Source of the DNA: an uncultured bacterium
GTDB taxonomy: Bacteria > SAR324 > NAC60-12
Reading direction: 5' to 3'
DNA: 64,000 bases
Assembly (NCBI GenBank): GCA_965662845.1
Contig: CBFIJD010000005.1
Span: forward strand, 1-64,000
The stretch's first letter is position 1; each line of letters starts with the position of its first letter. The notes under the pieces were generated by a model that was not told the origin of the DNA, made no database searches, and saw only the letters and a list, made by a program, of their open reading frames with translations. Positions 20,386-50,354 of this stretch are shown here, piece after piece. Position numbers and translations under genes: made by a program.

Positions 20386-21443
20386 TGGATCTCTCAGACT
20401 TTGACAAACTCAACATCAACTGGTTTCCGGGCCACATGCTCAAGGCGCGGAAGCAAGTCGCAGCTCAGATCCGCCGAGTGGACGTCGTCTTGGAGCTGCG
20501 CGACGCGCGGCTGCCTCGCACCTCGCTCAACCGCGATTTGAATACGATGCTCCAAAATAAGCCAAGCGTTGTGCTCTTTAACAAAGCGGGGCTCGCTGAC
20601 GATGAGAGTGTCCGAGCGTGGCAGCAGCACCTCAAGGAGCAGATGCGGGAGCCGTTTTTGTTCATTGACGTCAAGCAAAAGCGCAATTTGCAGCGCATCC
20701 TGCCCTTGGCGCGAGAGCTGGTGAAGGCGAAGTGGGAGGGATATCGCAAGCGAGGCATTCGCCCTCCGGCCCTGCGCTTGATGATTGTCGGCGTCCCGAA
20801 TGTGGGCAAATCCAGTTTGATCAATGCGATGGTGAAGCGAAGCGCCGCACGCACCGGCCCAACTCCGGGAGTCACGCGCCATCAAGAGTGGATTTTGTTG
20901 GGCAATAACGCCGAGCTGTTAGACACTCCGGGAATTCTTTTCCCGAAAATTGACACGACTGCTGCGGGCATGAACCTGACGCTGATTGGCGCAATTAAAG
21001 ATGATGTCGTCGGCGTGGAACATCTCAGTCGTTATTTGATGTTGCTGGGGCAAAAGCACTTCTCCCAAGCGCTCACCGCGCAATACAAACTTGAAGACGC
21101 AGAGAGTCTTTCTCCGGAGAGTTTGTTAGCCGCCATCGCGACACGGCGGGGCCTATTGCGAACAGGCGGGTTGATCGATTGGCGTCGTGTGGGAGAGCTC
21201 GTGTTGCGCGACTTTCGGGAGGGAAAATTTGGCGCCATCATGTTGGATAGCCCCCCGCTCAGTCTATCAAAGGCATCACGCCGTTCGGCTTCAACACCTG
21301 CCGCTGAAACCAATTTGTCGTCTGCTCTGCTTGAAGATGCAGTGTCCCCGTCAAATCAGGAGACTGCGCACAAACCAGACTCCCCTTCCAATACACCTGA
21401 GCTATCTGCCACTGCAGGCAATCAGGCCCCTCCGCCAAAATAA
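20385..21443 (+). CDS. rbgA: ribosome biogenesis GTPase A (RbgA/YlqF) with a disordered C-terminal tail
   Basis: Circularly permuted GTPase motifs ('NKAGLAD', 'VGVPNVGKSSLINA', 'TGPTPGVTRHQ'); TGATG overlap with the HDAC stop; ~60-aa S/P-rich tail overlaps a convergent ORF. Confidence 0.8.
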   Translation: MDLSDFDKLNINWFPGHMLKARKQVAAQIRRVDVVLELRDARLPRTSLNRDLNTMLQNKPSVVLFNKAGLADDESVRAWQQHLKEQMREPFLFIDVKQKRNLQRILPLARELVKAKWEGYRKRGIRPPALRLMIVGVPNVGKSSLINAMVKRSAARTGPTPGVTRHQEWILLGNNAELLDTPGILFPKIDTTAAGMNLTLIGAIKDDVVGVEHLSRYLMLLGQKHFSQALTAQYKLEDAESLSPESLLAAIATRRGLLRTGGLIDWRRVGELVLRDFREGKFGAIMLDSPPLSLSKASRRSASTPAAETNLSSALLEDAVSPSNQETAHKPDSPSNTPELSATAGNQAPPPK

Positions 21444-22194
21444 AGCCACTGAAACCCACGGAAGTGTCCCCCGTTTGAGACTGCAACGTCAGGCGACCCG
21501 TCGTCCGGAGATGTAACGAGACCGCCGCGGTAGGAAATGCGGAGGCCGTAGGCAAATGAAGCCGGAGGTCGCCGTTGACTCGCAGCGCTACTGGAGCCGC
21601 GAGAGAGATGTTGTCGGCTGCGGTTTGTAGCAAATTGGGGTTCCAAATCATGGTCTGCGAGCCGTCGAGTTCCACTGTGTATGTTGGTTCTTGAATAGCG
21701 TCGTCGAGCCAGATCCAGCGCTCTAAGCTCGCCTCGACCAGTTGCTGCTCGGCCAAGTTGGCCCAATGAAGACTGGGGAACCGCGCAGGGAGACCGGCCG
21801 TCAGATGAAAGGCTAGAGAAGTCAGCGGACGAGATTCATGGCGCAGCAAAACTTCAAAAGGCAGATTGGTCGAGCCGTCGGGTTGATAATGCAGGCGCAA
21901 TTGCAACCAGCCCTCGGAGTGAGGCTGCGTATGAACCGCCCAATTGGGAAAGTCAGCGGCCGGAGGCAAGGAAAGCTCGGCGCTGTGGAGAGTCGCCCAC
22001 GTTTGCCCACGTAGTTGTTGCAGAGAGACAACGGCGATGGCTTGCAGCTCGGAATAGAGAGTGAGGCGTTCGAGCAGAAGGTTGGTGTGGGACGAAGTCC
22101 GTAAACTTTGTACGAACCAGCGCGCAGCGAGCGCAGACAAGAAGACCGTCAGAAGCAACGTGAGCAACAGCACGAAGCCTGATCGACTGCGCAT
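21259..22194 (-). CDS. secreted hypothetical protein with a GspK/pseudopilin-like N-terminus
   Basis: 'MRSRSGFVLLLTLLLTVFLSALA' N-terminal hydrophobic segment; rest unrecognised; 3' end overlaps rbgA by ~185 nt, so the ends are uncertain. Confidence 0.45.
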   Translation of the reverse strand: MRSRSGFVLLLTLLLTVFLSALAARWFVQSLRTSSHTNLLLERLTLYSELQAIAVVSLQQLRGQTWATLHSAELSLPPAADFPNWAVHTQPHSEGWLQLRLHYQPDGSTNLPFEVLLRHESRPLTSLAFHLTAGLPARFPSLHWANLAEQQLVEASLERWIWLDDAIQEPTYTVELDGSQTMIWNPNLLQTAADNISLAAPVALRVNGDLRLHLPTASAFPTAAVSLHLRTTGRLTLQSQTGDTSVGFSGFILAEGPDCLQWQIAQVYWKGSLVCAQSPDLTGTLHLQAEQTTNWFQRQVLKPNGVMPLID

Positions 22195-22200
22195 AGAAGG

Positions 22201-22518
22201 TCAGCGGGTTTCAGCGAAGAGATCGATTTGTGTTCCATGCTCATCTTCATGGAACGGCAAAAGTAACTGCTCTAAGGAAGGGCGAGACAAGCGCTCAAAA
22301 CCACGGGCGAGGAACTGACGATGCAGCTGGTCAATTTGCGAGTGGAGGGTCTGTGTGCAGTCAAACCAATGTTCTTGTTGTTGGGGGGAGCCTCCCATGT
22401 GTCCCTTTTGAATGCGCAAGCGCCACTGTTCACAGCCCTCTCGAACCCACTGTCCCCAAGCGACGCGGCAGTAGCGCCGTTTGCCAGAGCTGGAGCGTTG
22501 TTCGTAGTAAAGAAACAT
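22201..22518 (-). CDS. hypothetical protein
   Basis: ORF 22201-22572; internal start chosen to reduce overlap with msrQ. Confidence 0.35.
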   Translation of the reverse strand: MFLYYEQRSSSGKRRYCRVAWGQWVREGCEQWRLRIQKGHMGGSPQQQEHWFDCTQTLHSQIDQLHRQFLARGFERLSRPSLEQLLLPFHEDEHGTQIDLFAETR

Positions 22519-22535
22519 ACGGCTGAGAGAAGAGG

Positions 22536-23135
22536 TTAGTGAGCAGCGCGCCATTTTTGAGAGCGCAGCCAAAGAAAAAGGCGGATAAGTTCAGCACATA
22601 ACAAGGGAACAAACAAAAATAATGCCTGAAGCGAGTCGGATTTCTCGTTGAGAAACAGGTGAACGGCCACAAATAGCGCGGCGACATAAGCGACGCGGTG
22701 CAGCTTCTTCCACCGCTTGCCTCCCAAACGCCGCATCGCCGCGTTGTTGCTTGTCAACGCCAACAGGAGCAGCAGCAGAAACGCAATGAACCCAGTGAGT
22801 AGATACGTCCTTTGGAGGTCTTTTAGCAGGATTTCCGCGTCAAGATTGTCAAGGATGTGCACGGTGAAGTGCAAAAAAGCGTAGAAAAAGACGGCGATGC
22901 CTAGACCGCGACGATATTTAGGGAGTCTTTTCAGCCACTGCAAACCACGAAGATCTCCAAACCACTGTCGCAAAGGCGTAATCCACAGCGTAAGCACCAA
23001 GCCATAAGCAGCCCAATCACCAGTTTGATGGTAAAGATACTCGACAGGATTCGCCGTCGCCGTGACCTGCGTCGCGATCCAAATCAGAGGTAAGGAATAG
23101 AGCAACCAAGGTAAAATTCGCTGCAAGAGGAGCAT
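22536..23135 (-). CDS. msrQ: MsrQ (YedZ), heme-binding membrane subunit of the MsrPQ methionine sulfoxide reductase system
   Basis: Alignable to E. coli MsrQ ('NPVEYLYHQTGDWA', 'RRLGGKRWKKLHRVAYVAALFVAVH'), 6 TM; no msrP adjacent. Confidence 0.8.
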   Translation of the reverse strand: MLLLQRILPWLLYSLPLIWIATQVTATANPVEYLYHQTGDWAAYGLVLTLWITPLRQWFGDLRGLQWLKRLPKYRRGLGIAVFFYAFLHFTVHILDNLDAEILLKDLQRTYLLTGFIAFLLLLLLALTSNNAAMRRLGGKRWKKLHRVAYVAALFVAVHLFLNEKSDSLQALFLFVPLLCAELIRLFLWLRSQKWRAAH

Positions 23136-23423: not shown

Positions 23424-23842
23424 ACTCTCCCCGAAAATCGTCTCTCCGGCGCCCCCTCCCTCTCCAAACCATGCTAGCGTCCTCTCCGAAAAGTTGCACT
23501 AGCTGTGCTGCGAGCAGAGCCAACATGAGGAGCACCTCGTCTCCCCAACGCGTGTCTTCAGAACAGGAGCCTTTCAAGTAAAAAGTGACGATACGTTTGT
23601 GAAGCTTCCTCACCGGTTCACGCAGAGAGTCGACGGATTTTTTCAATCTAAATTTGACAGCACACGAGCCCGCTGATTCTCGCAGATTTCACGGCACAAT
23701 AAAGATCAATGTGGCAAATTTAAGATGGATTTTTTTGTTCTGAATTTTCAGGAAAATGGTAGAAAATAAAGCTGAATTTGTCAGGTTTATTATTGGATTT
23801 TCTTCTTTGAAAATCATCAGTAAACTCCATTGACTAAAGTTC

Positions 23843-23871
23843 TTGACAACTAGGTCTGTAATCAGGATACT
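23843..23871 (+). promoter_or_regulatory. putative sigma70-type promoter for cbbL-cbbS-cso operon
   Basis: TTGACA (23843-48), 17-nt spacer, GATACT (23866-71), ~100 nt upstream of the cbbL ATG; a TTGACTAAAG motif lies just upstream (23830-39). Confidence 0.35.
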
Positions 23872-23974: not shown

Positions 23975-25390
23975 ATGGCAAAACAAACTTACGATGCAGG
24001 CGTAAAAGAGTACCGCGACATGTACTGGACGCCGGACTACGTCCCACTAGACACGGATCTGCTCGCTTGTTTCAAGTGTACGGGGCAGGCCGGCGTGCCC
24101 CGAGAAGAAGTCGCTGCCGCTGTGGCCGCAGAGTCCTCCACAGGCACATGGAGCACAGTCTGGTCAGAGCTGCTGACAGATCTCGAATACTACAAAGGTC
24201 GGGCTTATCGTATTGAAGATGTTCCCGGAGATAACGAGTCGTTTTACGCATTCGTAGCATACCCCATTGATCTCTTCGAAGAGGGCTCGGTTGTGAACGT
24301 GCTCACCTCTTTAGTTGGGAACGTGTTTGGATTTAAAGCGCTGCGTCATTTGCGTTTAGAAGATATTCGTTTTCCCATCGCCTACATCAAAACTTGTGGG
24401 GGCCCACCGGCGGGTATTCAACTCGAGAGAGACCGCTTGAATAAGTATGGGCGCCCCATGCTCGGCGCGACGATTAAACCCAAGCTGGGGCTCTCGGCAA
24501 AGAATTATGGCCGTGCGGTTTATGAGTGTCTCCGCGGCGGCTTAGATATGACAAAGGACGATGAAAACGTGAACTCGCAGCCGTTTATGCGCTGGAGAGA
24601 TCGCTTTGAATTTGTGGGAGAAGCCATCCAAAAAGCGCAACAAGAAACGGGTGAGCGCAAAGGTCATTACCTGAACGTGACGGCGGCAACTCCTGAGGAG
24701 ATGTATAAGCGCGCGGAGTTCGCGAAAGAGGTGGGCTCGCCCATCATCATGCACGACTTCCTCACGGGGGGCTTCACGGCCAACACAGGTCTGGCGAACT
24801 GGTGTCGAGAGAACAGCATGCTCCTGCACATCCATCGCGCGATGCACGCTGTGATTGACCGCCATCCCAAGCATGGGATTCACTTCCGCGTGCTGGCCAA
24901 ATGTCTGCGCCTCTCCGGTGGCGACCACCTCCACACCGGCACCGTGGTTGGGAAGTTGGAAGGCGACCGTCAATCTACCCTTGGTTATGTAGATCAGCTG
25001 CGTGAATCATTTGTCCCAGAAGATCGCTCCCGCGGTGTCTTCTTTGACCAAGATTGGGGTTCGCTGCCAGGGGTGTTTGCGGTGGCCTCTGGTGGAATCC
25101 ACGTGTGGCACATGCCGGCTCTGGTCACCATTTTTGGGGACGATTCCATGTTGCAGTTTGGCGGCGGAACCCAAGGGCACCCTTGGGGGAACGCAGCTGG
25201 GGCAGCCGCGAATCGCGTCGCTCTGGAAGCTAGCGTGAAAGCACGCAACGAGGGGCGTGAAATTGAGAAAGAAGCTCGCGACATCTTGACAGAAGCTGCC
25301 CGCCATAGCCCCGAACTCGCCATCGCAATGGAGGTGTGGAAAGAAATTAAGTTTGAATTTGATACTGTGGACAAGCTGGACGTCTCTTAA
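23975..25390 (+). CDS. cbbL: RuBisCO large subunit, form IA
   Basis: Full-length 471-aa RbcL with catalytic motifs ('[24 protein letters not shown]' region, 'KPKLGLS'); AGGAG RBS upstream. Confidence 0.98.
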
Positions 25391-25438
25391 TTCGTAGCCG
25401 TTCAACATCACCAACCATCCTGTAAAGAGGACACTGCT

Positions 25439-25783
25439 ATGTCGATGAGTCACCAAATGGGCGATTTCCAAACCGCCCAAACGCTAGAGACCTTTGGTTT
25501 TCTGCCCAAATTCACGCAAGAAGAAATCTACGACCAGATCGCCTATCTCATCTCACAAGGCTGGACTCCAGCGATTGAACACGAGCACCCGGCGCGTTCC
25601 ACTAACCACTATTGGACGATGTGGAAGCTGCCGTTTTTCGGTGAGCAGAATCTCGACAATGTCATGAATGAGCTAGAAGCCTGCCGACGAGCATACCCTG
25701 ATCACCATGTGCGCTTGCTGGGCTACGATAACTATACCCAAAGCCAAGGGCTGGCTTTTGTCGTCTTTGAAGGCCGGGTGTAA
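25439..25783 (+). CDS. cbbS: RuBisCO small subunit, form IA
   Basis: 114-aa RbcS ('[11 protein letters not shown]', '[15 protein letters not shown]'). Confidence 0.95.
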
Positions 25784-25848
25784 GAGCAGGTCAGGATGTT
25801 GAAACAGGGCTTTTGTGTGAGGATTTTCAAAGATAATGGGGAGTTCTA

Positions 25849-28329
25849 ATGAGACAAAGCGATAGCGCAATGAGCGGTCGAACGTTGGCAAGGCAGAGAC
25901 GCAGAGCCTTGTCGGCTTCAGGCAAAACCTCAGCGATGACCCAAGCGAGTGGCGCTGCAGCCACGGCTTCCGTTCCAGCAGTCAAACGCTCGGCGGAGAG
26001 GAAGGCGCAGTCTGGTCGTGAGGCCTCATTAGCCCGCAGGAGAGCTTTGTCTAGCCACGGTAAAGTTGCGGAGACAAGCGGTGATCAGAGTCGCGCCGCG
26101 GCACGTCAACAAGCCGACGCAGCTGAACAGAACGCGGCCTCGGCTGACACATCCCCATCGTATGAAAGTTCAAGGGCCGCGCCTCGTGCCCGTCGTCCTC
26201 AGCACACACACACGAGCGCCGATTATGCGACGGCAGCGCGCCGCGCCTCTCGGGAGCGCCGCAGAGCTCTCTCTAGCAAAGGGAAGGTGGCAGACCGCAG
26301 CACAGACCGAACGAAAGCCAGCTCCGGAAAGTCTGCGCCCTCTGCTCCCATCGGCGGCTCGACCCACCCGCCCGAAACACCGGAATGTAGCTGCCAAAAA
26401 GACAACACACGGTCGGCGCCTCAACAGGCAGAGGTTGTGTCAACTTCGCGTGCCAACACCTCGACACGCCCACGGAGCAAAGCCCGACCCAAAAATGTGC
26501 ACACCGCGAGCTCAGGCCGGTCAGTCGCATTGGCTCGCCGAAGAGCCCAGTCCACTCGCGGAAAAGCCGGAATCAGCGCTTCAGGAATGTCAACGGCCCA
26601 GACCGCAAGAGCGCAAAACCCGCAGTTGACGAGCCGCGAATTAGCGAAAGCCATACGGGAACAAAACAGCCGCCGCGGCAAGGCCGGCCAAAAGAAATCC
26701 GAGCCAGCAGGACGCCAGCGCAGCGCAAAGCAACGGAACGCCGCCGCGAGTGACGCCAGCTGGAAAGTCGGCGCCAGCGAAACCGCGCGAGGTCAAACGT
26801 TAACGGGCACGATGATAGACCGGACGAACGCCACAACCGGTAATGACCAAAGCACCTGTCGCCACATCACGGGAACAGAGTACATGGGCGCAGAAATCTT
26901 TCGGGACTTTTGCCAGACCGAGCCTCCGATGACTCCAATGAGAGGGACCACGACTACAACAAGCCGTGGAAACAGCGTGTCAGGAAACCGAGTCGGAAGA
27001 AGCCAAAAGTTGACGGGCAACGAAGCTGGAACCTGCAAGAAGGTCACAGGGTCGGAGTACCTCTCTGCTGAAGAACACCAAGAATATTGCGGCACGAAAG
27101 GTTCGGCAACTCCCGCCAAGGTCACCTCCAGCCACACGGCGAAAGGCGAGAGGGTGACGGGCAACCCAGAAGCTCGCTCTCAACGAGCTACAGGAGCCGA
27201 AGTCGGCAGCAACCGCTTGCTCACAGGCACGCAATACATGTCTGCTAGCGAACCGGAGTCAAGAGCCCCCGCCAAGGTCGGCAGCAGCCAGACGCTGAGA
27301 GGCGGAAATGTGACCGGCTCCATGGTGGGGCGGTCTGCCAAAATGACGGGCGACGAACAAGGTGGGTGCCAGCGAGTTACTGGGGACGACTACCTCGGCC
27401 AAGAGCACTTCCAAGTCTTTTGCAAGACTCAGCTTGAGGCCAATGACCAGAAAGTTGGAGCGTCCCAAACCTTCAATGACCGGCAAGTGACCGGCACCAT
27501 GACGGGCCGTGGTGCTCAAGTGACCGGGGACGAACCAGGGACTTGTAAAACGGTTACAGGCACGCCCTACGCTGGGGTTGAGCAATACGATAACTTCTGC
27601 TCCCCGATGGAAAAGCAACTTCAGACGCAGCGCACCCAAGCCCCAAGAACACCTAGTGAGGCCGCGCCTTCAACAGCTGCTCAAATCGCCCCTGCTCGCA
27701 AGAGGATCGGCGCTGACCAAGACGCTTTGGAGGCCGTGAGCGGGACTTCATCTCCGCGCGACGAACAGCAGAAACTAGCGTGCGCCGCAGAGCCTGCCAC
27801 ACCAGAGAGCCCAGATTTTCCGCAAATGTTGAACTCACGTCCGCCATTGGAAGGAGCACCCACAGCCAACAGCAGTGACCGTGTCCCCACGGCAATGGTG
27901 ACGGGTTCCAGCTATGGACAGGGAAAGATCACGGGGCCTTTTGGCATGGCTACAGACAAAGTGACTGGGACTGATGAAGCGAGATTTGGCCACCAGAACA
28001 CCACTTCCCCTGCCAGCGCAGCTCCTACCGAAAGAGAAAGCTCGTCTGGCACAACCTCGGCTCCCAAAATCACAGGGGAGGGCATGGCTGCAGGCGGCAG
28101 AATCACAGGAGATGACTGGGAACGCGGAGAGCGCGTGACGGGTACGGAAGGCCGCTCCGTGCTCAGCCGAAATCCCACACGGCGTGGAGGGCCAATGTCG
28201 GCAATGGCGCCAACGCAGATGAGCAATCGTAACGCTGAAATTGAGCAACCCGTGAGCAAGGTGACGGGCAGCAGTGGCAACACCGCGAAAGGTGCCTTGG
28301 TCACTTACTCCGGCGGCGCTCGCGGCTAA
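25849..28329 (+). CDS. csoS2: carboxysome scaffold protein CsoS2
   Basis: 826-aa disordered protein: five N-repeats of the RuBisCO-binding motif (R..RRRALS..GK); M-repeats with VTG and paired Cys; C-terminal repeats ending '...KVTGSSGNTAKGALVTYSGGARG'. Confidence 0.95.
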   Translation: MRQSDSAMSGRTLARQRRRALSASGKTSAMTQASGAAATASVPAVKRSAERKAQSGREASLARRRALSSHGKVAETSGDQSRAAARQQADAAEQNAASADTSPSYESSRAAPRARRPQHTHTSADYATAARRASRERRRALSSKGKVADRSTDRTKASSGKSAPSAPIGGSTHPPETPECSCQKDNTRSAPQQAEVVSTSRANTSTRPRSKARPKNVHTASSGRSVALARRRAQSTRGKAGISASGMSTAQTARAQNPQLTSRELAKAIREQNSRRGKAGQKKSEPAGRQRSAKQRNAAASDASWKVGASETARGQTLTGTMIDRTNATTGNDQSTCRHITGTEYMGAEIFRDFCQTEPPMTPMRGTTTTTSRGNSVSGNRVGRSQKLTGNEAGTCKKVTGSEYLSAEEHQEYCGTKGSATPAKVTSSHTAKGERVTGNPEARSQRATGAEVGSNRLLTGTQYMSASEPESRAPAKVGSSQTLRGGNVTGSMVGRSAKMTGDEQGGCQRVTGDDYLGQEHFQVFCKTQLEANDQKVGASQTFNDRQVTGTMTGRGAQVTGDEPGTCKTVTGTPYAGVEQYDNFCSPMEKQLQTQRTQAPRTPSEAAPSTAAQIAPARKRIGADQDALEAVSGTSSPRDEQQKLACAAEPATPESPDFPQMLNSRPPLEGAPTANSSDRVPTAMVTGSSYGQGKITGPFGMATDKVTGTDEARFGHQNTTSPASAAPTERESSSGTTSAPKITGEGMAAGGRITGDDWERGERVTGTEGRSVLSRNPTRRGGPMSAMAPTQMSNRNAEIEQPVSKVTGSSGNTAKGALVTYSGGARG
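25873..26690 (+). repeat. CsoS2 N-repeat region (five R/K-rich RuBisCO-binding repeats)
   Basis: SGRTLARQRRRALSASGK / SGREASLARRRALSSHGK / ASRERRRALSSKGK / SGRSVALARRRAQSTRGK / SRELAKAIREQNSRRGK. Confidence 0.8.
26761..27650 (+). repeat. CsoS2 M-repeat region (VTG/Cys-pair repeats)
   Basis: Five ~40-aa repeats with ..TG..C(R/K).(V/I)TG..Y....(E/Q).(F/Y)C; the third repeat lacks the Cys pair. Confidence 0.75.
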
Positions 28330-28360
28330 TTTTTGAGTCTATGGCAAAAGAGATATCTCC

Positions 28361-29884
28361 TTGAATCGTAAATCTCGTCACAAGCGACTCGTTCCTCAGC
28401 AGCAAGTGAACGTGAGTCCTGCGCCGTTACGTCGACCAGGAGTGGTTCTAGCGGAAGCAAACCCTGCGCACGATTTGGCGTCAGCCCGAAACCACGCGCT
28501 GGTGGATCTTGAGGCGAATCGCCGGTTGTTCGCTTACGAAGAGAAAGTGAAGAGCGCGTTTGACAACGTGATTCCTGCGCTGAAGAAGATCTCTGTCATT
28601 CGTCATGATGGCGATTTTGAAAGGCAGGCCCAACGGATTGCCGAAGCAGAGCTGGGGTTTCGGCTCCCAGATTGGATTCTGGAAAACGTGTGGGTGAGTA
28701 AGCTAGATATGCAGCAGCTGTTCGCGTGGTCTATTTTTGAGACTTATCACCACTTTGCGAACCAATTTTATCGGGAGCAGCCATTGCAGGCCGCTGACGA
28801 TCATGAGTTCGAAGAGTTTGTGAGATTCTGCGGATTTCATGCGGTTGACATCACTCCTTGTGCAGACGGTCGCTTAGCTCATCTCATCAGTTATGTTTTG
28901 CGGTTACCGGATCAGTATGTGCGACGTAAGTCTTACGCTGGCGCTTTGTTTGACATTGAAAAAAATACGCAAAAGTGGGTGGAGGTTGAAATGTTGCGTC
29001 TCCGCAAAGCGCAACAAGATCCTACGCCAGAATCAACTAGATACTTAAAAGGGATCGCGTACCACTTCAGTTCCCGTGACCCCGAACATGAAGGTTGTGC
29101 TGCGCACGGTTCAGACACTTTAAAAGCAGCGCAAGCAGGGCTCAATCGTTTGCTTAGTTTTCAAGAAGCTGTGGAGAACAGCTTTGGCCGAGGCGCCTCG
29201 ATTGACTTGCTGTTGATGGGGCTAGATACCGACACAGACGCGATTCGGATTCATTTACCTGACGCCCAAGGTGACTTGTCGTTGCAACGCTTTGTGGACT
29301 GTATGGAACTATACGAAGCCACACAGGAGCTGTCGTTTCATCAAGCAGAACATCACCTGAAAAATGTGATTCTCGAAGTTTCACCAGAAATCGGGGATGG
29401 GATGCTCCGTTTCGTAAGTTACTTGATATTTAATAATTTTGATCAGATTGACTATGTAAGATCGTATCATGGTCATTATTACTCCGATATTGGTCACGCG
29501 GAGCGCTTCATTGGCGCGGGGGTTGGATTCAAAGAAATTCAGCTGCGGAACCTAATGTACTTTTCATATTTGAGTACGGTAGAAGAGGCGGCACAAGACT
29601 TAGATGTTGGGATTAAGATTTTCACTCATCTCAATCTCTCCAAGAGTTTACCGATCCCTGTGGTAGTGCGCTTTGACTATCATGGCCATGTGCCTGGGGC
29701 GAGAGACCGTGCAGTGGAGAAATGTCAACGAGTGGTTGCCGCAATCAATAGTCGTTATGCCGAACTCGCTCATACAGGGAAGCTACATACGCTCGAGGTC
29801 GTTAGAGATTGTCGGAGTAATGCGCCGCTAGAGATCCTGAATTGCAGTATCCGAGGTGGTGTCGAAGTAGGGAATTACGAATGA
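28361..29884 (+). CDS. csoS3: carboxysome shell carbonic anhydrase CsoSCA (CsoS3)
   Basis: 507 aa; beta-CA-like active-site motifs 'CADGRLAH' (CxDxR) and 'EGCAAHGSD' (HxxC); position after csoS2. Confidence 0.9.
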   Translation: MNRKSRHKRLVPQQQVNVSPAPLRRPGVVLAEANPAHDLASARNHALVDLEANRRLFAYEEKVKSAFDNVIPALKKISVIRHDGDFERQAQRIAEAELGFRLPDWILENVWVSKLDMQQLFAWSIFETYHHFANQFYREQPLQAADDHEFEEFVRFCGFHAVDITPCADGRLAHLISYVLRLPDQYVRRKSYAGALFDIEKNTQKWVEVEMLRLRKAQQDPTPESTRYLKGIAYHFSSRDPEHEGCAAHGSDTLKAAQAGLNRLLSFQEAVENSFGRGASIDLLLMGLDTDTDAIRIHLPDAQGDLSLQRFVDCMELYEATQELSFHQAEHHLKNVILEVSPEIGDGMLRFVSYLIFNNFDQIDYVRSYHGHYYSDIGHAERFIGAGVGFKEIQLRNLMYFSYLSTVEEAAQDLDVGIKIFTHLNLSKSLPIPVVVRFDYHGHVPGARDRAVEKCQRVVAAINSRYAELAHTGKLHTLEVVRDCRSNAPLEILNCSIRGGVEVGNYE

Positions 29885-30150
29885 AAATCTGCCAAGTTGA
29901 GAAACAGTTAGTATCGACCAATCGCATCGCTAGTTTTGAGCACAAACATCTCCTAGTTGTCAGAGATGGATCGACCCAACTTGTCGCTGTAGACGCAGTT
30001 GGGTGTAGAGTAGGAGATTGGGTGATTTGTGTGGGGAGCTCAGCGGCGAGAGAGGCGGCTGGTAGCAAAGAATATCCAAGTGATTTAACGATCGTCGGTA
30101 TTATCGATCACTGGCCTCCTGAAGAGGAAAAGAGCGAACCAACGGGTTAA
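29881..30150 (+). CDS. csoS4A: carboxysome vertex (pentamer) protein CsoS4A (EutN/CcmL family)
   Basis: 'MKICQVEKQLVSTNRI...AVDAVG...GSSAAREA' is typical of CcmL/EutN; ATGA overlap with the csoSCA stop. Confidence 0.9.
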   Translation: MKICQVEKQLVSTNRIASFEHKHLLVVRDGSTQLVAVDAVGCRVGDWVICVGSSAAREAAGSKEYPSDLTIVGIIDHWPPEEEKSEPTG

Positions 30151-30152
30151 TT

Positions 30153-30398
30153 ATGGAAATCTTTCAAGTGGAGAGATCACTCTTTTGTACCTGTCGCATT
30201 GACGGCCTGAAACAGATCAGCTTGCGTGTCCTTCGAGATAGCCGAGGACGGCGACAAGTCGCTGTGGATCCTGTGGGGGTCCGTCAGGGGAATTGGGTCT
30301 TTACTGTCAATGGTTCCGCAGCGCGTTATGCCGCAGGAGATTTCAAAATTTTAACCGACTTAACTATCGGTGGTATTATCGATAATTGGGAAACCTGA
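30153..30398 (+). CDS. csoS4B: carboxysome vertex protein CsoS4B (EutN/CcmL family)
   Basis: 81-aa EutN/CcmL-family protein directly after csoS4A. Confidence 0.9.
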   Translation: MEIFQVERSLFCTCRIDGLKQISLRVLRDSRGRRQVAVDPVGVRQGNWVFTVNGSAARYAAGDFKILTDLTIGGIIDNWET

Positions 30399-30456
30399 GA
30401 ATCTTGTTCAGGTAGTTGATTTTAATATTACTCATTGTGTTAATCAGGAGGTTTGA

Positions 30457-30747
30457 ATGGCAACAGAAAGCTATGGAATTGCGTTAGGGATGATCGAGAC
30501 GCGCGGACTTGTGCCGGCAATTGAAGCCGCAGATGCAATGACAAAAGCCGCCGAGGTGCGTTTGATTGGTCGTGAATTTGTCGGTGGGGGGTATGTGACT
30601 GTCCTCGTTCGCGGGGAAACCGGCGCTGTAAACGCTGCTGTGCGCGCAGGAGCAGACGCTTGTGAACGAGTGGGAGATGGGTTGGTCGCGGCTCATATTA
30701 TCGCTCGCCCACACCGCGAAGTGGAGCCCGTCCTTGGCAATAAGTAA
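30457..30747 (+). CDS. csoS1: carboxysome shell hexamer protein CsoS1 (BMC-H), copy 1
   Basis: '[29 protein letters not shown]...[12 protein letters not shown]' is a canonical BMC domain. Confidence 0.95.
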   Translation: MATESYGIALGMIETRGLVPAIEAADAMTKAAEVRLIGREFVGGGYVTVLVRGETGAVNAAVRAGADACERVGDGLVAAHIIARPHREVEPVLGNK

Positions 30748-30805
30748 TTCTTACTTGTGACGCTGACGAACTGAATTTTATCAATTTCGAAAAAGAGAGA
30801 ATACC

Positions 30806-31117
30806 ATGTCGAATGAATACGGAATCGCGCTGGGAATGATTGAGACACGCGGATTAGTCCCCGCAATTGAAGCCGCAGATGCGATGACAAAAGCTGCCGA
30901 GGTACGCTTGATTGGTCGTGAGTTTGTCGGTGGGGGATATGTGACCGTTCTAGTCCGTGGGGAAACCGGCGCCGTAAACGCCGCTGTGCGCGCAGGGGCA
31001 GACGCTTGTGAGCGGGTTGGAGATGGTTTAGTAGCCGCGCACATTATCGCCCGCCCACACCGTGAAGTAGAACCTGTCTTGCCGACAAGTGAAATCAGTT
31101 CCTCTAAGGTCTCTTGA
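30806..31117 (+). CDS. csoS1: carboxysome shell hexamer protein CsoS1 (BMC-H), copy 2, with a short C-terminal extension
   Basis: Protein identical to copy 1 over the BMC core while the DNA differs at many synonymous sites; C-terminal tail '[11 protein letters not shown]'. Confidence 0.95.
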
Positions 31118-31147
31118 TTTGTTTCTGAACGGTAGAGTGAGGTTAGA

Positions 31148-31636
31148 GTGATGATTTCTGCTCATACAGATGCCCTTGTTTTAGGGTATCTAGGCCGAGC
31201 CTTAAGTCTGGCATTCTCTGCCGTTCAGTTATACACCACTCATGCTCAATTAGTCGCATACTGGGGGTTTCGCAAAGAAGCGGACGACTTCTCCACCATC
31301 GTGCAAACTGAGATCAAGCACACCGAGCGCATTACTGCTCGGATGATCTCTCTGGGGGTGGCGCCAAACGCATCACAATTGCGGACGGTTCCATTAGGAG
31401 AAAGTCTTACAGCGCTGATGAAGCTTGGCATACAACTTCAACAAGAACAGGTGGGCTTCTATGCGGAAGCAGAGAGTTATTGTCACAAACAAAACTTTGA
31501 AAATGACAGAATTTTCTTTGCTCAAATTTTGGAAGAAAAACAGCGTGATCTCCAAGAGTTGGAGACCTGGTTTCACTCACTGCGTCCTGTAAAGTCCAAG
31601 CAACAGACTGGAAAGTCTCGCCGAAGTTTCGAGTGA
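31148..31636 (+). CDS. bacterioferritin-like (ferritin-like domain) protein of alpha-carboxysome loci
   Basis: 162-aa four-helix ferritin-like protein; conserved position after csoS1 genes, as in proteobacterial cso operons. Confidence 0.75.
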   Translation: MMISAHTDALVLGYLGRALSLAFSAVQLYTTHAQLVAYWGFRKEADDFSTIVQTEIKHTERITARMISLGVAPNASQLRTVPLGESLTALMKLGIQLQQEQVGFYAEAESYCHKQNFENDRIFFAQILEEKQRDLQELETWFHSLRPVKSKQQTGKSRRSFE

Positions 31637-31660
31637 TTTTTCGCCACACTACGAGGATTT

Positions 31661-31915
31661 GTGATGAATTCTTGGAAGGAACGTAAGCGGCCAAACCGAT
31701 TGGAAGGACGCTACGAATTTTCAAACTATGAGAGCTTACGAGACTTCTTAGACCGAGCTGCTGAAATCTCAGAGGCAGAGGGCTTTTACCCAGATCTTGG
31801 ATTTGGAAAAGACTATGTGAATGTGACCATTCACGCCGAACAACCCGACTCAGAATTGAACGAACAGCAACGAGAATTTGCGAACAAGCTAGACCAATTA
31901 TTTGCCGCAAACTAG
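31661..31915 (+). CDS. pterin-4a-carbinolamine dehydratase-like protein (alpha-carboxysome RuBisCO assembly factor, acRAF)
   Basis: 84-aa PCD/DCoH-like fold ('YEFSNYESLRDFLDRAAEISEAEGFYPDLGFGKDYVNVTI'); conserved position in cso operons. Confidence 0.8.
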   Translation: MMNSWKERKRPNRLEGRYEFSNYESLRDFLDRAAEISEAEGFYPDLGFGKDYVNVTIHAEQPDSELNEQQREFANKLDQLFAAN

Positions 31916-31959
31916 ACGTACATTCCGTTGAATAATTTCCTTGTAAAGATGGGCGCCCG

Positions 31960-32181
31960 ATGAATACGCAAGAGAAAGCCACGCCAGAAGAATCACCGGT
32001 TGAAAATCAGAAAACCGCCGCGACTACTGCGTTAAAGTCTTCTGCTACCGAAGCAAGAGCGACAGACTCCGGTGTAGGAACTGTGGTCTCAACTAGCCAG
32101 CCCGCGACAGGAGAGGGTGAGCCAGCAAAGAAGACGCTGACAGGCGCTTTTCCGCGTCGTCCTCGTGTATGGCCAGATTAA
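31960..32181 (+). CDS. small intrinsically disordered protein (possible McdB-like), uncertain
   Basis: 73-aa low-complexity T/A/S/E/K-rich ORF ending '...RRPRVWPD' (Trp near the C-terminus); weak RBS; sits where mcdA-mcdB lie in proteobacterial cso loci. Confidence 0.3.
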   Translation: MNTQEKATPEESPVENQKTAATTALKSSATEARATDSGVGTVVSTSQPATGEGEPAKKTLTGAFPRRPRVWPD

Positions 32182-32300
32182 AGTAAACTACAAAAGACTG
32201 CGAAAGTAACGCCCCCAGCCTGCTAACAGAAGCCAGATTTTGGCTGCCCTCCATAAAACTTGGATTGCCTCGATCCACTTGTTTCGATGATGTCGTCTCG

Positions 32301-32891
32301 CTAGAGTGTCGCGCCTGTGTAGTCCTCATATCGAGGGGCACGTACTTGTAGTTTTCGGGTTTTCTCCAGCATTCGATAAGTAGAGCGGTTGTTGTTGAAT
32401 CGCAAAGTTTGATGAAGCGGAACCCAGATAACTTGATGCGACTCGTCATTGCCGGGTACAGGCAAACTCGGATCAATTTCCACCAAAAATCGAATATCAA
32501 AATGCTCATGACGCGCATCGTCGGGGGTGGGTTCGATGGTGTGAATGTCCACATCAAATAAGGCGTCACTTATGAGGCGAATGGAGTCTTGTGGCAGCCC
32601 GGTCTCTTCCGAAGTTTCTTTCAAAGCGACCTTCACAATGTCGGCATCTCCATCGGCGTGACCTCCAGGCTGGAACCATTGACCTAGCTTTTTATGGTGC
32701 AACAAAAGCACATGCTGTCGATCTGGGCTGACAACCCAAGCAGAGCCCGTGACATGACCGATGTGAAGCTCTCGATCAAAACAATCTTCATGCTGCTGGA
32801 CAAAAGCGAGTGCCCGCGCCACATACGCAGCCTCGTCCATAAAGCGAGTGTGATAGTCGCTGAGTAAGCTTAATAATTGAAGCCGATGCAT
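32301..32891 (-). CDS. NUDIX hydrolase
   Basis: Nudix box 'GGHADGDADIVKVALKETSEETGL'; last gene of the sulP-csoS1D-nudix operon (5-nt gap to csoS1D). Confidence 0.8.
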   Translation of the reverse strand: MHRLQLLSLLSDYHTRFMDEAAYVARALAFVQQHEDCFDRELHIGHVTGSAWVVSPDRQHVLLLHHKKLGQWFQPGGHADGDADIVKVALKETSEETGLPQDSIRLISDALFDVDIHTIEPTPDDARHEHFDIRFLVEIDPSLPVPGNDESHQVIWVPLHQTLRFNNNRSTYRMLEKTRKLQVRAPRYEDYTGATL

Positions 32892-32896
32892 AGCGA

Positions 32897-33511
32897 TTAA
32901 GTCCCTGATGGATTGTTGACTGCTACAGTTGCTGCTTGCGCGGCCTCATCAATAGCACCTTCTCTCCCTGCTAAAATAAGTCGTCCAAAGGCTCCTACCG
33001 CTCTGACGTCAATCAAAGAAATATCAGCTGCTTTTTCCGCTTGGTTTGCCGCATATACAATATATCCAGCAGGCTCTGTTTCTAAAATAAACATGCTCTG
33101 GCCGGGTAAGATCATATTTCCCCGTCGATCTTGACGATTAATGAGCACAGTATGATCTGGGGTCATACCTCGGATCGTTTCTTTCCATGCAATCTTGCAC
33201 GCCTGACGATCGGACTGTGTGGCTCCCATCGCAGAAAGAATGGCTCGCCCTGCCTCCACGACATCGCTTTGATCTCGCTGATGAATCACCATGGAGCCAT
33301 AAGCGCGCTCTACAACCTGCTGCGCCAAGTGAACACGAGTGGCTTTGAGCGCGCGGTCGGTGAGTCGATGAACTGCCATCCCCGGAGAAACTTCAACCCA
33401 AAGACAAGCATCACCAGGCACGGGAAGAAAGCCCTGAGAAGCTGTTGAGATGTAAGCGGCTAGTTGGGGTTGAAGCGCGTCAATGTAAACATAAGTACGC
33501 AAGCGGATCAT
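32897..33511 (-). CDS. csoS1D: tandem permuted-BMC-domain shell protein CsoS1D (CcmP-like pseudohexamer)
   Basis: '[55 protein letters not shown]' closely parallels the CcmP/CsoS1D N-terminus; 204 aa with two permuted BMC domains. Confidence 0.8.
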
Positions 33512-33519
33512 ACAGTGCT

Positions 33520-35163
33520 CTATGATAAAATAATGTTGGCTCTTTCCAGCGCTTCTTGTCGGGTTGTGAGAATATTTTGTTCGCCAACTTGCTGCAAAAT
33601 TCCCATCTTCTCTAAACGCTGACGAACACTGGGCTGCAATCCGACGACAAAGACAGGGCGTGATTTCTCTAAATCTTCTAAGATCATTTGTTCAATTGCA
33701 AGAGATGAGGAGACTCCTAGCAAGGGCACTTCTGTAAAGTCTACAATGAGGACTTGATGATCCGTTAAGATAGCATACTGTCTCGATATCGCTTTAGCGA
33801 CTCCAAATATTAGAGGGCCTCCCAACGCAAAGACTAATACTTTCCCTTGCGCCTGCTCCATCAAAACTTGTTCATCTTTCGTCAGCCGATGTGAGCTGTT
33901 GTGATCTCGGATCGCTTCTAACGATTGAGACTGTATCTCGACCATCCGCTCTATGGTCAACAAATTCGCGATAAATACTCCAATGGCAACGGCTGTGATT
34001 AAATCAACAAACACGGTCAGTAAGATCACACCATACATCATCAGCGCTGCACGAGTCGAGACGTGATGTGCTCGCTTGAGAAACGACCAGTCGATGATGT
34101 CCATCCCGACCTTAATCGCGATTCCTGCGAGTACTGCGAGTGGTATATGCGCGGTTAGCTTAGCCGCCCAGAGCAGCACAATTAAAAGAATGAGTGCTCG
34201 CGTAATACCAGAGAGCGCGGAGCGTGCGCCAGCTTGGATGTTGACAACGGTTCCCATCGTTGCGCCAGCTCCGGGAATGCCTCCAAATAAGCCTGCGAAT
34301 AGATTACCGATGCCCTGCCCAAGCAGCTCTTTATCCGAGTTGCTTTGTCGTTGTGTCAGGTTTTCAGCGATGACAGAGGTCAATAATGCGTCAATACTAC
34401 CCAGCACCGCTAGCATGATTGCATCCACAACCATGCTTTGCCATTGGTCTAAGGAAAAGTACGGCAGTTGTAATTCTGGTAATCCCATTGGGATGGGGCC
34501 GATTTGACGAATGCTTTGCCCTTGTAAAAACCAAACGGCGACTAACGTCGCCACAACGAGCGCGACTAATTGAGGAGGTAAGTATCGTCCCCATGTCTTC
34601 GGAAAAAAGATGATGAGGCTAAAAGTTAAGACAGCGAGGGCGGTCTCTGCAGGATTGATCGCGGCGATGAGATCGGGTAAGGAGCTGATCGTTCCAATGA
34701 CACCTCCCGGAGGGGGGGCTTGTCCTAAGATGGGGCCTAGTTGCAGGATGATTAAAATCACGCCAATCCCCGTCATAAATCCAGAGATGACGGTGTAAGG
34801 CATCATCGTGACATAGCGGCCTAGCTTGAGCGCGCCGAAGATCATTTGGAATACTCCGGCGAGCATGACGACCGTGAAGGCCATCGCCATGCCCTGCTCA
34901 GGATCTGCCGCGATTAAACTGGCAATCACGGCCGTGATGATGACCGTCATCGGGCCGGTCGGTTCGGATATTAAGGTGGGAGTGCTGCCAAACAAAGTCG
35001 CAAACAGCCCCACGAGGACAGCCCCGTAAAGACCAGCCGCTGGGCCTGCTCCTGACGCGACCCCAAACGCTAATGCCATTGGAAGGGCAATGATTGCTGC
35101 GGTGACTCCGCCAAAAATGTCTCCCCGAAGATTGTCAAACCGGATCTCATTCAACAGCTGCAT
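33520..35163 (-). CDS. SulP-family anion transporter with C-terminal STAS domain (BicA-like candidate bicarbonate transporter)
   Basis: 547 aa; sulfate-transporter TM core plus STAS ('[19 protein letters not shown]...'); 8 nt upstream of csoS1D; GAGGGGGA RBS. Confidence 0.85.
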
Positions 35164-35349
35164 TTCATGTCCCCCTCTTCGACGTTTAGATGCTCTTTTT
35201 TTATTATTTCTGTGTTCTATATCGCCGCTATTAAATATTTCTGCAACGATAGATTTCGGATTTTAATGCTCAAATACAGACGTTTGATCGATTTACCAAC
35301 TTAAATTTGAACCAAGGCACGGTCTTTAGATTTCGTTAAAAACATTGCG

Positions 35350-35570: not shown

Positions 35571-36452
35571 TCAGGAGGCCGCTTGCCGCCAATCGTCGAT
35601 GTCCTCCCGCAGCCCTTCAAGGGTGCTGGCTTTGAGCGGTTCTGAGAGAGAGAGCCTTAGGAACTCTTCTTCGCGGTTCCATTGATCGACCTCGCCAGTG
35701 TGGGCAAACACGACCAACTCATCGGTGTCTACTACGCCCACGCTGATTCCCTGCTCTCCCGGTTGAGTCCAGAGCAGCGTGTCTTCTACTTTCTGAATGC
35801 GTTGGGTGACTTCCTCAATCAGTTGCAAGACCTGCATCAAAAGCTGGTCTCGAGGCGCGTTGTTGATGCCTGCTAGCGCCTGCTGGAGCTCGGTGCGTGC
35901 CTGCTCTTCGTTGACGTCTTCACTGAGGGCGCAGCTCCAAACTTCATGGGCCCCCCCTGCAGAAGCATACCGAACGGTCAACCAGGCGCGTTCCAGTCCG
36001 CCCATGCTCCGAATGTCTTCAAACTGCACCAACACATCGAGCACGCGTTCGATCCCGAAGGGGCCTTCGGGCAGCTCATGCCGCCACACTCCTTGCCGCT
36101 CTGTGGCCGCAAAAGGAAATTGTTCATAGAGGACACGGAAGAGCACTTCGAAGTGCTCGCGCGCGCGCTGTCGCAGACCATATTGATAGGTCTCCCCGTG
36201 GTGCAAGCGCTGTAAGTGGGTACGGACGGCCTCATGTTCTTCTGCTGGCAAATGCGGAGCACAGTGCTCCCAGTGGACTTCGGGGGCGTAGTGCTGCTCC
36301 ATGTATTCTGGAACCGAGATACGAAAGAGCGGGGCAGCATCGGCGTCATTGCCAGAGAGCACAATCCACTCTTGGTGCATTAGCATTTCCAGTAGCGCGC
36401 GTTCTGCGACGTGTTGCTGTTGGGGAGTCAAATCAAAAAAAGAGACAGGCAT
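35571..36452 (-). CDS. hypothetical protein
   Basis: Long ORF with coding-like composition; no recognisable domain; start set at MPVSFFD. Confidence 0.45.
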   Translation of the reverse strand: MPVSFFDLTPQQQHVAERALLEMLMHQEWIVLSGNDADAAPLFRISVPEYMEQHYAPEVHWEHCAPHLPAEEHEAVRTHLQRLHHGETYQYGLRQRAREHFEVLFRVLYEQFPFAATERQGVWRHELPEGPFGIERVLDVLVQFEDIRSMGGLERAWLTVRYASAGGAHEVWSCALSEDVNEEQARTELQQALAGINNAPRDQLLMQVLQLIEEVTQRIQKVEDTLLWTQPGEQGISVGVVDTDELVVFAHTGEVDQWNREEEFLRLSLSEPLKASTLEGLREDIDDWRQAAS

Positions 36453-36489
36453 GAGAATCGATTGCAAAAGACGGTTGGAAAGAAGGCCT

Positions 36490-37053
36490 TTACTTGACGG
36501 AGGGAGTGACAGGCTGATGATAGACGGCATGAGAGCGCAACTGAGAGAGATACATTTGGTCGATGACTTGTAAGTGCCGACGTTCTTGCTGCAGGGCTGC
36601 TCCTGTGCCCTCGAAGCGAACCAGCGCTCTCTGAAACGCCGCTAGATGTTGCACGCCGCGCAGGCGTTGCCACCAGCGGGCGTTTTGCTGAACGCGATAC
36701 ATTGTCTTCCAGAGTTGCTCGTGCTCCTGACGCAGCCGCAAGAACTTCTGTTGGTCATTTTGCCAACGATGCCGCAACTGATTTTCCCAGCGCAGCAGCT
36801 GTTCTTCGTGTTGCTCCAGCGCGGCTCGTTGCGCTTCGTCAATGTGGGCGCCTTGCGCTTGCAAGTGATCCAGCAGCTCGTTGACTTGGCGCAACGCTTG
36901 GGATTCTGGCACGGACTCCTGTGGAAAAATCGCGAGCGGATCTCGGCTGAACAGCCAACGCAGGAACCACACCGCTAACACCACAGCGGCGATCAACAGG
37001 AGAATGAAGCCGTAAATAGAGACACGAAAGGCGACGTCGACCCATGCTTCCAT
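36490..37053 (-). CDS. membrane-anchored coiled-coil hypothetical protein
   Basis: N-terminal TM ('IYGFILLLIAAVVLAVWFL') followed by Q/R/E-rich heptad-like sequence. Confidence 0.45.
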   Translation of the reverse strand: MEAWVDVAFRVSIYGFILLLIAAVVLAVWFLRWLFSRDPLAIFPQESVPESQALRQVNELLDHLQAQGAHIDEAQRAALEQHEEQLLRWENQLRHRWQNDQQKFLRLRQEHEQLWKTMYRVQQNARWWQRLRGVQHLAAFQRALVRFEGTGAALQQERRHLQVIDQMYLSQLRSHAVYHQPVTPSVK

Positions 37054-44352: not shown

Positions 44353-44895
44353 GAGGTCTCCTAAGAGAAGAAGGATGCGCGTTGAAATTGCTGGAGGGCA
44401 ACAGTGGGAGCGAGCACAACATTCTGTGTGAAAAACGCGTGGAGAACAAGCATCACGAGGCGACAAGGCAGAGGCGCCGTACAACAAGTGTTTGACAGAG
44501 CACGAGGTTCGCGAGAGGCTTCTGCCCTCATCTATCTGTGATGGGACACTGACCGCGTGAGGTCTTTCAGCAGAACACCTGTCGTCAGGGACGCGACTTC
44601 AGAAGGTCGTGCTGGAATCGTGCGGCTCGTCCCGCAAATCTGTTCGTCTCAAAACCAACCTTTCTGCGGAGTCCCTTCTGGGAAGGCAGACTCTCCTACT
44701 CGATGCGTGGGCTTGTTCAAAATAAAGCGCGAGGGGGCGCTTCTGGGGACGAGGCCGCACCACGAGGATGGTGACAAAAACGTGAAAATTCCACCCAATC
44801 GTTTACAGTGCGAGATCCAGCAAACGCGGGTTCTCACAACAAGTGGGGCGGGACACGAACCCAATCTGCTGACCAAACTGTAAGGAATTCAGAAA

Positions 44896-50005: not shown

Positions 50006-50023
50006 CCTTGAGTGAGAAGACCT

Positions 50024-50353: not shown

Positions 50354-50354
50354 G

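Follow-up and report, generated by a model that had tools for sequence, protein, structure and literature searches.

In Halothiobacillus neapolitanus, the alpha-carboxysome genes form a core operon from which csoS1D lies apart (PMC12918739; 10.1101/476713), and a second operon directly downstream carries acRAF, the ParA-type gene mcdA, cbbOQ, a P-II gene and DAB1, the uptake of dissolved inorganic carbon (DIC) being served by DAB pumps (10.1101/476713). Carboxysome (cso) operons that carry mcdB and no mcdA are also a published arrangement: MacCready et al. (2021) defined the Type 2 orphan alpha-McdB, described genomes in which such an orphan sits in the cso operon with mcdA and a second mcdB often at a distant locus, and found about 9% of alpha-carboxysome proteobacteria to be without any McdA (PMC8359340). 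SulP-family DIC transporters are likewise already known in autotrophic Proteobacteria, members of this family transporting various anions (PMC10880623). Here we describe a cso locus on contig CBFIJD010000005.1 of an uncultured bacterium, within a stretch of 64 kb (positions 1 to 64,000, hereafter the window, to which all coordinates refer). The island at ~23.1-35.6 kb has the core gene order of H. neapolitanus followed by acRAF and, judged by its genes, is a real and complete alpha-carboxysome locus with RuBisCO, scaffold, carbonic anhydrase and a shell of hexameric, pentameric and tandem-domain bacterial microcompartment proteins (BMC-H, BMC-P and BMC-T). We consider it likely that this is a self-contained, trimmed CO2-concentrating island made of two convergent units, which was acquired horizontally and is without the usual LysR control.

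Genes were called from the listing of open reading frames (ORFs; about 60 in the window) together with Pfam and NCBIfam profile scans. The first unit runs from cbbL through mcdB on the + strand over ~8.2 kb, with intergenic gaps of at most 65 bp. It opens with cbbL (23975-25390), whose product is a RuBisCO large subunit of form I and of the carboxysomal IA type (Pfam RuBisCO_large, 461 bits, and RuBisCO_large_N), sharing 92-97% identity with cso-linked CbbL proteins from gammaproteobacterial relatives, and with cbbS for the small subunit (25439-25783; Pfam RuBisCO_small, 133.6 bits). These are followed by csoS2 (25849-28329), whose 826-aa scaffold product covers model positions 1-425 of 425 of Pfam CsoS2_M (473 bits) and is 40-57% identical to that of most relatives, and by csoSCA (28361-29884), encoding from a TTG start a shell carbonic anhydrase of 507 aa in which Pfam CsoSCA_N, CsoSCA_cat and CsoSCA_C all score above cutoff. 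Two pentameric vertex proteins (BMC-P) are encoded by csoS4A (29881-30150; Pfam EutN_CcmL, 85 bits; 89 aa in the calls of other assemblies) and csoS4B (30153-30398; EutN_CcmL, 70.8 bits), and two hexameric shell proteins (BMC-H) by csoS1 (30457-30747; Pfam BMC, 92.8 bits) and a csoS1 paralogue with a short C-terminal tail (30806-31117; 92.5 bits). The unit continues with a bacterioferritin-like gene (bfr-like, 31148-31636; Pfam Ferritin, 42 bits; NCBIfam bfr, 54 bits against a required 125.55), with acRAF for a pterin-dehydratase-like RuBisCO assembly factor (31661-31915; Pfam Pterin_4a, 29.9 bits) and, finally, with a small mcdB-like gene (31960-32181), called from its position after acRAF and from the C-terminal RVWPD of its 73-aa product, a presumed alpha-McdB of the Type 2 orphan class.

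The second unit, bicA(sulP)-csoS1D-nudix, lies on the - strand and spans ~2.9 kb with gaps of 8 bp and 5 bp. Its first gene, sulP (33520-35163), encodes a SulP/STAS transporter of the BicA type (Pfam Sulfate_transp, 324 bits; STAS, 41.6 bits). It is followed by csoS1D (32897-33511), encoding a tandem-BMC pseudohexamer (BMC-T; Pfam BMC; NCBIfam CcmP-like, 235 bits) to which CsoS1D_N (PF27545) is assigned in the precomputed annotation of an identical protein, and the last gene encodes a Nudix hydrolase (32301-32891; Pfam NUDIX, 51.5 bits). The stop codons of mcdB and nudix are 119 bp apart. A preliminary description of this DNA had already given cbbL-cbbS-csoS2-csoSCA-csoS4A-csoS4B-csoS1-csoS1-bfr-like-acRAF in proteobacterial order and the convergent sulP-csoS1D-nudix operon, and the profile scans bore out both; all genes that it named in the locus were right, but the mcdB-like ORF had been overlooked.

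All 14 island genes are intact, full-length ORFs with full-length Pfam and NCBIfam domain matches. Furthermore, a near-identical locus (97-100% at the protein level) was found intact in three further independent metagenome assemblies, so that an assembly artefact is excluded. Two of the source runs, ERR15116882 and ERR15116679, appear in a data paper that presents metagenomes from coastal France and Chile (PMC12804801). That the genes form a dead remnant no longer building carboxysomes is very improbable: mcdA and lysR have been lost where relatives keep them and the N-terminus of McdB has diverged, but every gene is whole, the set of shell, scaffold, carbonic anhydrase and RuBisCO is complete, operon spacing is tight and the locus recurs in separate assemblies.

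To place this locus among its relatives, we compared it with 27 cso loci (L004-L030) obtained from GTDB genomes by a CsoSCA scan, the best CsoSCA identity being 59% and several of the loci being incomplete contigs. They belong mostly to Gammaproteobacteria (Chromatiaceae, Thiodiazotropha, Sedimenticolaceae, Thioalkalispiraceae and Acidiferrobacterales), with a few Alphaproteobacteria, and their features were counted by ORF clustering and tblastn. The layout of the clade is cbbLS-csoS2-csoSCA-csoS4AB-csoS1(1-2)-bfr-acRAF-mcdA-mcdB-lysR, then a convergent nudix-csoS1D-(hypothetical)-sulP, sometimes with dabB-dabA-PII upstream. The bfr-like gene holds the same position after csoS1 in 22 of the 27 loci (38-48% identity), and acRAF is syntenic in 26, at 52-64% identity in all except one. 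McdA occurs in 24 loci, each time followed by a basic McdB, and LysR in 21. The Nudix-CsoS1D pair is present in 19, on either the downstream or the upstream side of the core, a BicA-like SulP (58-74% identical) in 12, DabA in nine (dabAB-PII in 8-9) and SbtA in three. The frequency of csoS1D-nudix and of BicA-like SulP among these relatives makes sulP, csoS1D and nudix a standard companion module of the clade.

The nearest named relative is Ectothiorhodospiraceae bacterium BW-2 (CP032507.1), with a cso locus at ~1.872-1.909 Mb. It is the closest named relative for every island protein, with identities of 97% for CbbL, 94% for CsoS1D, 79% for SulP, 79% for Nudix and 61% for CsoSCA. As in the window, the order from cbbL to acRAF is followed in BW-2 by an orphan mcdB without mcdA (64 aa, MTTPEKTDPTEQ...KRVWPD), and sulP-csoS1D-nudix converges on a RuBisCO operon. 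In BW-2, however, mcdB and nudix are separated by ~19 kb carrying, in order, lysR, two CitMHS transporter genes, a histidine kinase and a sigma-54 response regulator, and a second RuBisCO operon, cbbL2-cbbS2-(102 aa)-cbbQ-cbbO, whereas the window joins both ends directly. Deletion from a BW-2-like layout would be the simplest reading of this difference. The outer flanks of the BW-2 locus are unrelated to those of the window and share no synteny with them. As a separate observation, the conserved 102-aa protein encoded between cbbS and cbbQ of the second BW-2 RuBisCO operon (L036 13811-14119) has a 59% identical homologue upstream of cbbL in one of the related loci (L009 1071-1358).

The companions usually linked to cso operons were then sought in and around the window. 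Among the ~60 ORFs, the Pfam and NCBIfam scans detected no LysR, CbbQ, CbbO, CbbX, ParA-type ATPase, DabA/DabB or SbtA, and no window ORF matched the Pfam HTH_1 or LysR_substrate domains. Similarly, tblastn with the CbbQ, CbbO, LysR and McdA of relatives (CbbQ and CbbO from BW-2, LysR from locus L004 and from BW-2) gave no match in the window, in the 10 kb to its right or in the ~1.5 kb to its left. The absence of cbbR, cbbX, cbbQ/cbbO, a ParA-type mcdA and dabAB, reported in the preliminary description, therefore held within the window, and the missing companions were not found immediately outside it either. Its statement that a DIC pump of the DAB type is lacking was correct for DabAB, but a DIC importer is present in the putative BicA-type SulP, which occupies the place that DAB has elsewhere. 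Neither was an Rfam RNA family found in the window, nor a tRNA by ARAGORN, so that no riboswitch or tRNA integration site is at hand to explain regulation or insertion.

The preliminary description had also raised the question of RuBisCO activation in this locus. No activase is linked to the island, but CbbQ/CbbO are equally missing within 10 kb in all 27 related loci, and this absence is thus normal for the clade; the missing linked activase is not peculiar to the window. Additionally, CbbQO appears dispensable for carboxysome function in H. neapolitanus (PMC12918739). The description of the accessory set as non-canonical was likewise only partly upheld: csoS1D-nudix, BicA-like SulP and missing cbbQO are all common among the relatives, but the absence of LysR does depart from them. 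The accessory set is mostly the ordinary one of the clade (BicA, CsoS1D, Nudix, bfr, acRAF and an orphan McdB) minus mcdA, cbbQO and LysR. For mcdA and cbbQO there are clear precedents of genes absent or encoded elsewhere; the distinctive point is the absence of both the LysR gene and its box.

Three candidates for missing functions were considered and rejected. A 311-aa ORF divergent from cbbL (21259-22194) does not qualify as cbbR, having no Pfam or NCBIfam match and overlapping a GTPase gene. The only AAA+ protein of the window (624-2450) has the wrong two-domain architecture for a RuBisCO activase and is encoded 21 kb away. The HAD hydrolase at 11035-11802 reached 57 bits against a cutoff of 180 and was not assigned as CbbY/phosphoglycolate phosphatase. 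The AAA+ gene itself, on the - strand, encodes a two-domain ATPase of the Cdc48/PAN type (TIGR01243, 713 bits; cutoff 802) with an acidic, disordered N-terminus, a type uncommon in bacteria and with no relation to the carboxysome genes.

In about 17 of 21 relatives, the sequence ATAG-N8-CTAT or a near variant is found at -122 to -141 from the cbbL start, followed by a conserved ATCGATTGG/ATTTATTKG element, and BW-2 carries the ATAG-N8-CTAT box at -123 of cbbL. Palindromes of the T-N11-A form are typical of LysR sites. We regard this box as the presumptive LysR operator of the clade because of where it lies, because it is a palindrome of the T-N11-A form and because it occurs together with a LysR gene. 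The window lacks it: a loose pattern, ATAG-N8-10-[CT][TG]AT, gave no match in the 840 bp that precede cbbL, and the strict ATAG-N8-CTAT was found nowhere in the 64 kb. What lies upstream of cbbL is a candidate sigma-70-like promoter, TTGACA-17-GATACT (23843-23871, + strand), with 10 of 12 consensus matches, which ends 104 bp before the ATG and is the best sigma-70-like match in the whole 12.7-kb scan. The LysR gene of the clade and its presumptive operator are thus both gone from the window, and expression of the island is probably constitutive or under a control other than the usual cis-encoded LysR. The loss of such control would not be trivial, since H. neapolitanus needs LysR and Crp/Fnr regulators for growth in air (10.1101/476713). 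A possible degenerate relic of a LysR box at ~23758-23777 was too weak to claim.

Terminator-like hairpins were noted on the + strand at the ends of cbbS (25740-25758) and csoS4B (30393-30413). These are consensus matches only, and the number of hairpins in the region is not above shuffled expectation; they might set the ratio of RuBisCO to shell transcripts.

The alternative that survives best, and to which we give an even chance, is that of an ordinary cso operon whose CbbR/LysR, McdA with a Type 1 McdB, and CbbQO are encoded elsewhere in the genome and act in trans. It agrees with the published genomes in which mcdA and a second mcdB are distant from the orphan mcdB of the cso operon (PMC8359340), with BW-2, where cbbQO sits with the second cbbLS copy and not in the cso operon, with the lack of cbbQO near any of the 27 related loci, and with H. 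neapolitanus, in which a LysR and a Crp/Fnr regulator located apart from the carboxysome genes are linked to high-CO2-requiring phenotypes (10.1101/476713). For a distant mcdA as for a second RuBisCO operon there are precedents, and both could exist beyond the 64-kb window, the 10 kb to its right and the 1.5 kb to its left, the stretches in which no such genes were found. It speaks against this alternative that the LysR-type palindrome upstream of cbbL is absent as well, so that an orthologue acting in trans would be without its usual site.

We turn to the origin of the island. The stretch running from csoSCA through sulP has a GC content of 0.45-0.51 and the upstream spacer one of 0.47, as compared to 0.57 in both flanks. 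At third codon positions (GC3), 11 of the 14 island genes have values of 0.41-0.53, against 0.661 ± 0.054 for the 38 other genes of the window (z between -2.4 and -4.7). The low-GC stretch has at its left edge the gene at 22536-23135 (- strand; GC3 0.585), which encodes an MsrQ-like ferric-reductase membrane protein (Pfam Ferric_reduct, 66.7 bits). The preliminary description had named it msrQ; a ferric-reductase membrane gene is indeed there, but its product scores 99.6 bits with the NCBIfam MsrQ model, below the cutoff of 130, which precludes a confident MsrQ assignment, and no msrP partner was found, the ORFs scanned nearby (21259-22194 and 22201-22572) being without Pfam or NCBIfam family match.

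Two markers outside the island point to a different affinity from that of the island proteins. For TsaD (15297-16304), the best named relatives, at 59-66% identity, bear names beginning with 'SAR' (most likely the SAR324 cluster), 'Deltapro' and 'Magnetoc', and no gammaproteobacterial TsaD is found among the named matches in the best 120. For a penicillin-binding protein of the division cluster (60370-62148), the best named relative is a Candidatus Lambdaproteobacteria metagenome-assembled genome (MAG; 48%), followed by Desulfuromonadales. The low GC3 and the gammaproteobacterial character of the island proteins, set against these SAR324/Lambdaproteobacteria-like markers, suggest horizontal acquisition; the probable donor was a gammaproteobacterium, and the probable recipient a SAR324/Lambdaproteobacteria-like host outside the Gammaproteobacteria. 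A literature search returned no report pairing a carboxysome with Lambdaproteobacteria; where SAR324 and carboxysomes came up, titles, abstracts and term counts indicated that one or both were mentioned in passing only.

Several points weigh against the reading of a trimmed, transferred island. The operator role of ATAG-N8-CTAT is presumptive, and 23843-23871 is a candidate promoter by consensus match. The genome may encode, outside the stretches searched, a CbbR acting in trans, a distant mcdA with a Type 1 mcdB, and a second cbbLS-cbbQO. Other histories than a deletion from a BW-2-like layout are possible, and no synteny was seen between the flanks of the window locus and those of the BW-2 locus. 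The GC3 values of cbbL, cbbS and csoS2 are only about one standard deviation (SD) below the mean, and low GC3 could in part be a matter of gene-specific codon bias. Finally, the host affinity is read from two markers at modest identity and is a lead rather than a placement.

Some of these points would also fit a native island, inherited vertically by a gammaproteobacterial host related to BW-2, its low GC being a matter of gene-specific codon usage. Besides the small GC3 deviation of cbbL, cbbS and csoS2, this explanation can draw on BW-2 being the closest named relative of every island protein and on faint magnetosome-like hints: the product of 22536-23135 also has a match in the C-terminal part of MamZ, an HtrA-type protease (43375-44487) weakly matches MamE, and a short FtsZ-like gene of 324 aa lies just right of the window (L033 9019-9993). 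BW-2 is presumably magnetotactic. No magnetosome gene cluster was seen in the window or next to it. Vertical inheritance is nevertheless unlikely, as the nearest named relatives of TsaD and of the penicillin-binding protein belong to SAR324, Lambdaproteobacteria, Deltaproteobacteria or Desulfuromonadales and none is gammaproteobacterial, as eleven island genes lie 2.4-4.7 SD below the other 38 in GC3, and as the flanking genes show no synteny to BW-2. We therefore retain horizontal acquisition as the preferred explanation.

Elsewhere in the window, a GIY-YIG + DUF4357 protein (48708-49670) is encoded amid small unannotated ORFs (50012-51035) and may mark another acquired segment. One gene among the 38 outside the island has a GC3 value of 0.461. 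The space between sulP and a livHM-type ABC transporter holds the genes of a 633-aa TPR protein and of three conserved hypothetical proteins of 293-319, 187 and 310 aa (35571-37053 and 38945-39877, - strand) without Pfam or NCBIfam match; they have the GC content of the host and are probably not part of the island.

The ORF overlooked initially, 31960-32181, starts 44 bp after acRAF and encodes MNTQEKATPEES...FPRRPRVWPD. When all six frames were searched for ORFs of 30-200 aa with a C-terminal [VIL]WP[DE]-stop, exactly one was found per cso locus, after acRAF or mcdA, and this is the only one in the window. An alignment with 10 homologues shows no variation at V70, W71, P72 and D73. In 24 relatives, mcdB follows a 208-aa ParA-type gene (AAA_31, MipZ, CbiA and ParA matches), and these McdA-linked McdBs have isoelectric points (pI) of 8.1-11.8 and an N-terminal DKTxxKLvxSiRKTK. 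The window protein differs from them in having a net charge of 0 and a pI of 6.2, and this N-terminal motif was not found in it. From its composition only (grand average of hydropathy -0.86, 64% disorder-promoting residues, two aromatic residues), it is predicted to be disordered. The V-W-P-D C-terminus, predicted disorder and missing charged N-terminus are as described for the Type 2 alpha-McdB (PMC8359340). The ORF thus fits the published Type 2 orphan class, and carboxysome binding is predicted for its product.

The SulP protein has the SulP transmembrane domain and C-terminal STAS domain (Pfam) that are also found in Synechocystis BicA (PDB 6KI1/6KI2). It matches the 6KI1 structure over residues 2-392 with E=1e-165 and the STAS domain with E=3e-25, and its alignment to NF050096, the BicA equivalog model of NCBIfam, spans the full length (1-542 of 547). 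The score of 851.5 bits is 28 below the curated cutoff of 880, and because of this narrow shortfall we use the label BicA-type rather than BicA. On these matches, the protein is a putative BicA-type bicarbonate transporter. Upstream of sulP, at ~72-82 bp, eight relatives (L007, L012-L014, L016, L018, L021 and L029) and BW-2 (L036) were compared and display an element with the consensus ATCGAAACTATCRCTTTTCA, then TTATAAAG ~20 nt further, possibly a promoter or the site of a regulator. In the window, a diverged copy occupies 35240-35261 (- strand), 94 bp upstream of sulP.

The least-explained conserved feature of the locus is the position of nudix downstream of csoS1D. It is immediately downstream in the 19 cso-anchored loci and in three Nudix-anchored loci, namely those of BW-2 (L036), of a 521-kb Joint Genome Institute (JGI) contig and of a Woeseia MAG (L042, L043). 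The Nudix protein belongs to a large, well-conserved subfamily that is uncharacterised; it has more than 2000 homologues, the best 120 at 63-79% identity except for one near-identical copy at 99%. As compared to the reference Nudix box GX5EX7REUXEEXGU, its motif reads G77-x5-A-x7-K-E-T-S-E-E-T-G-L: the REUXEE core survives as KETSEE, and another residue stands in place of the first Glu. Residues E92, E95, E96 and G98 are invariant in 40 homologues. No NCBIfam subfamily scored above 21.5 bits. The AlphaFold2 model (pLDDT 90.3) has as its nearest PDB entry an uncharacterised Nudix protein of Clostridium perfringens (3FCM, TM 0.77), Ap4A hydrolases reaching a TM of only ~0.55 at 17-18% identity. 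A literature search found no published link between Nudix/MutT and csoS1D or carboxysome loci. More tentatively, and with little confidence in the two ideas taken jointly, the pairing may point to an unrecognised carboxysome-associated nucleotide or diphosphate hydrolase, conceivably linked with the gated CsoS1D pore or with signalling of carbon status by nucleotides, and the locus may be a gammaproteobacterial island transferred into a SAR324/Lambdaproteobacteria-like lineage, where it would work as a minimal 14-gene, two-operon module without LysR, ParA positioning or a linked activase.

What is established for these protein families suggests how the self-contained island would work. BicA would import bicarbonate, which CsoSCA would turn into CO2 within a shell built of CsoS1 hexamers, CsoS4 pentamers and a few CsoS1D pseudohexamers. 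The form IA RuBisCO, its assembly aided by acRAF, would be packed into this shell by CsoS2, and the orphan McdB would attach to the carboxysome via its C-terminal tryptophan motif. Should the trimmed layout work in its present form, it would represent a naturally minimal, transferable alpha-carboxysome CO2-concentrating mechanism (CCM) in ~12.5 kb, comprising RuBisCO, scaffold, carbonic anhydrase, shell, acRAF, the bfr-like protein, an orphan McdB, a BicA-type importer, CsoS1D and Nudix. This would bear on the moving of carboxysomes into new hosts and on the spread of CCMs between phyla. The locus also highlights two understudied conserved companions, the Nudix gene downstream of csoS1D and the Type 2 orphan McdB without McdA.

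In other respects, the locus is a regular member of the well-described alpha-carboxysome family. In H. neapolitanus, we take a bfr-like gene to lie between csoS1 and acRAF. The window differs from H. neapolitanus in having a BicA-type transporter and no ParA, cbbOQ or DAB. With Chromatiales/Thiodiazotropha-type loci it has in common the core cbbLS-csoS2-csoSCA-csoS4AB-csoS1-bfr-acRAF, but many of these carry mcdA with a basic Type 1 mcdB, LysR, and dabAB-PII or sbtA, none of which is in the window. Compared with cyanobacterial BicA, finally, sulP stands here in an operon with csoS1D and nudix, as part of a cso island of the chemoautotroph type.

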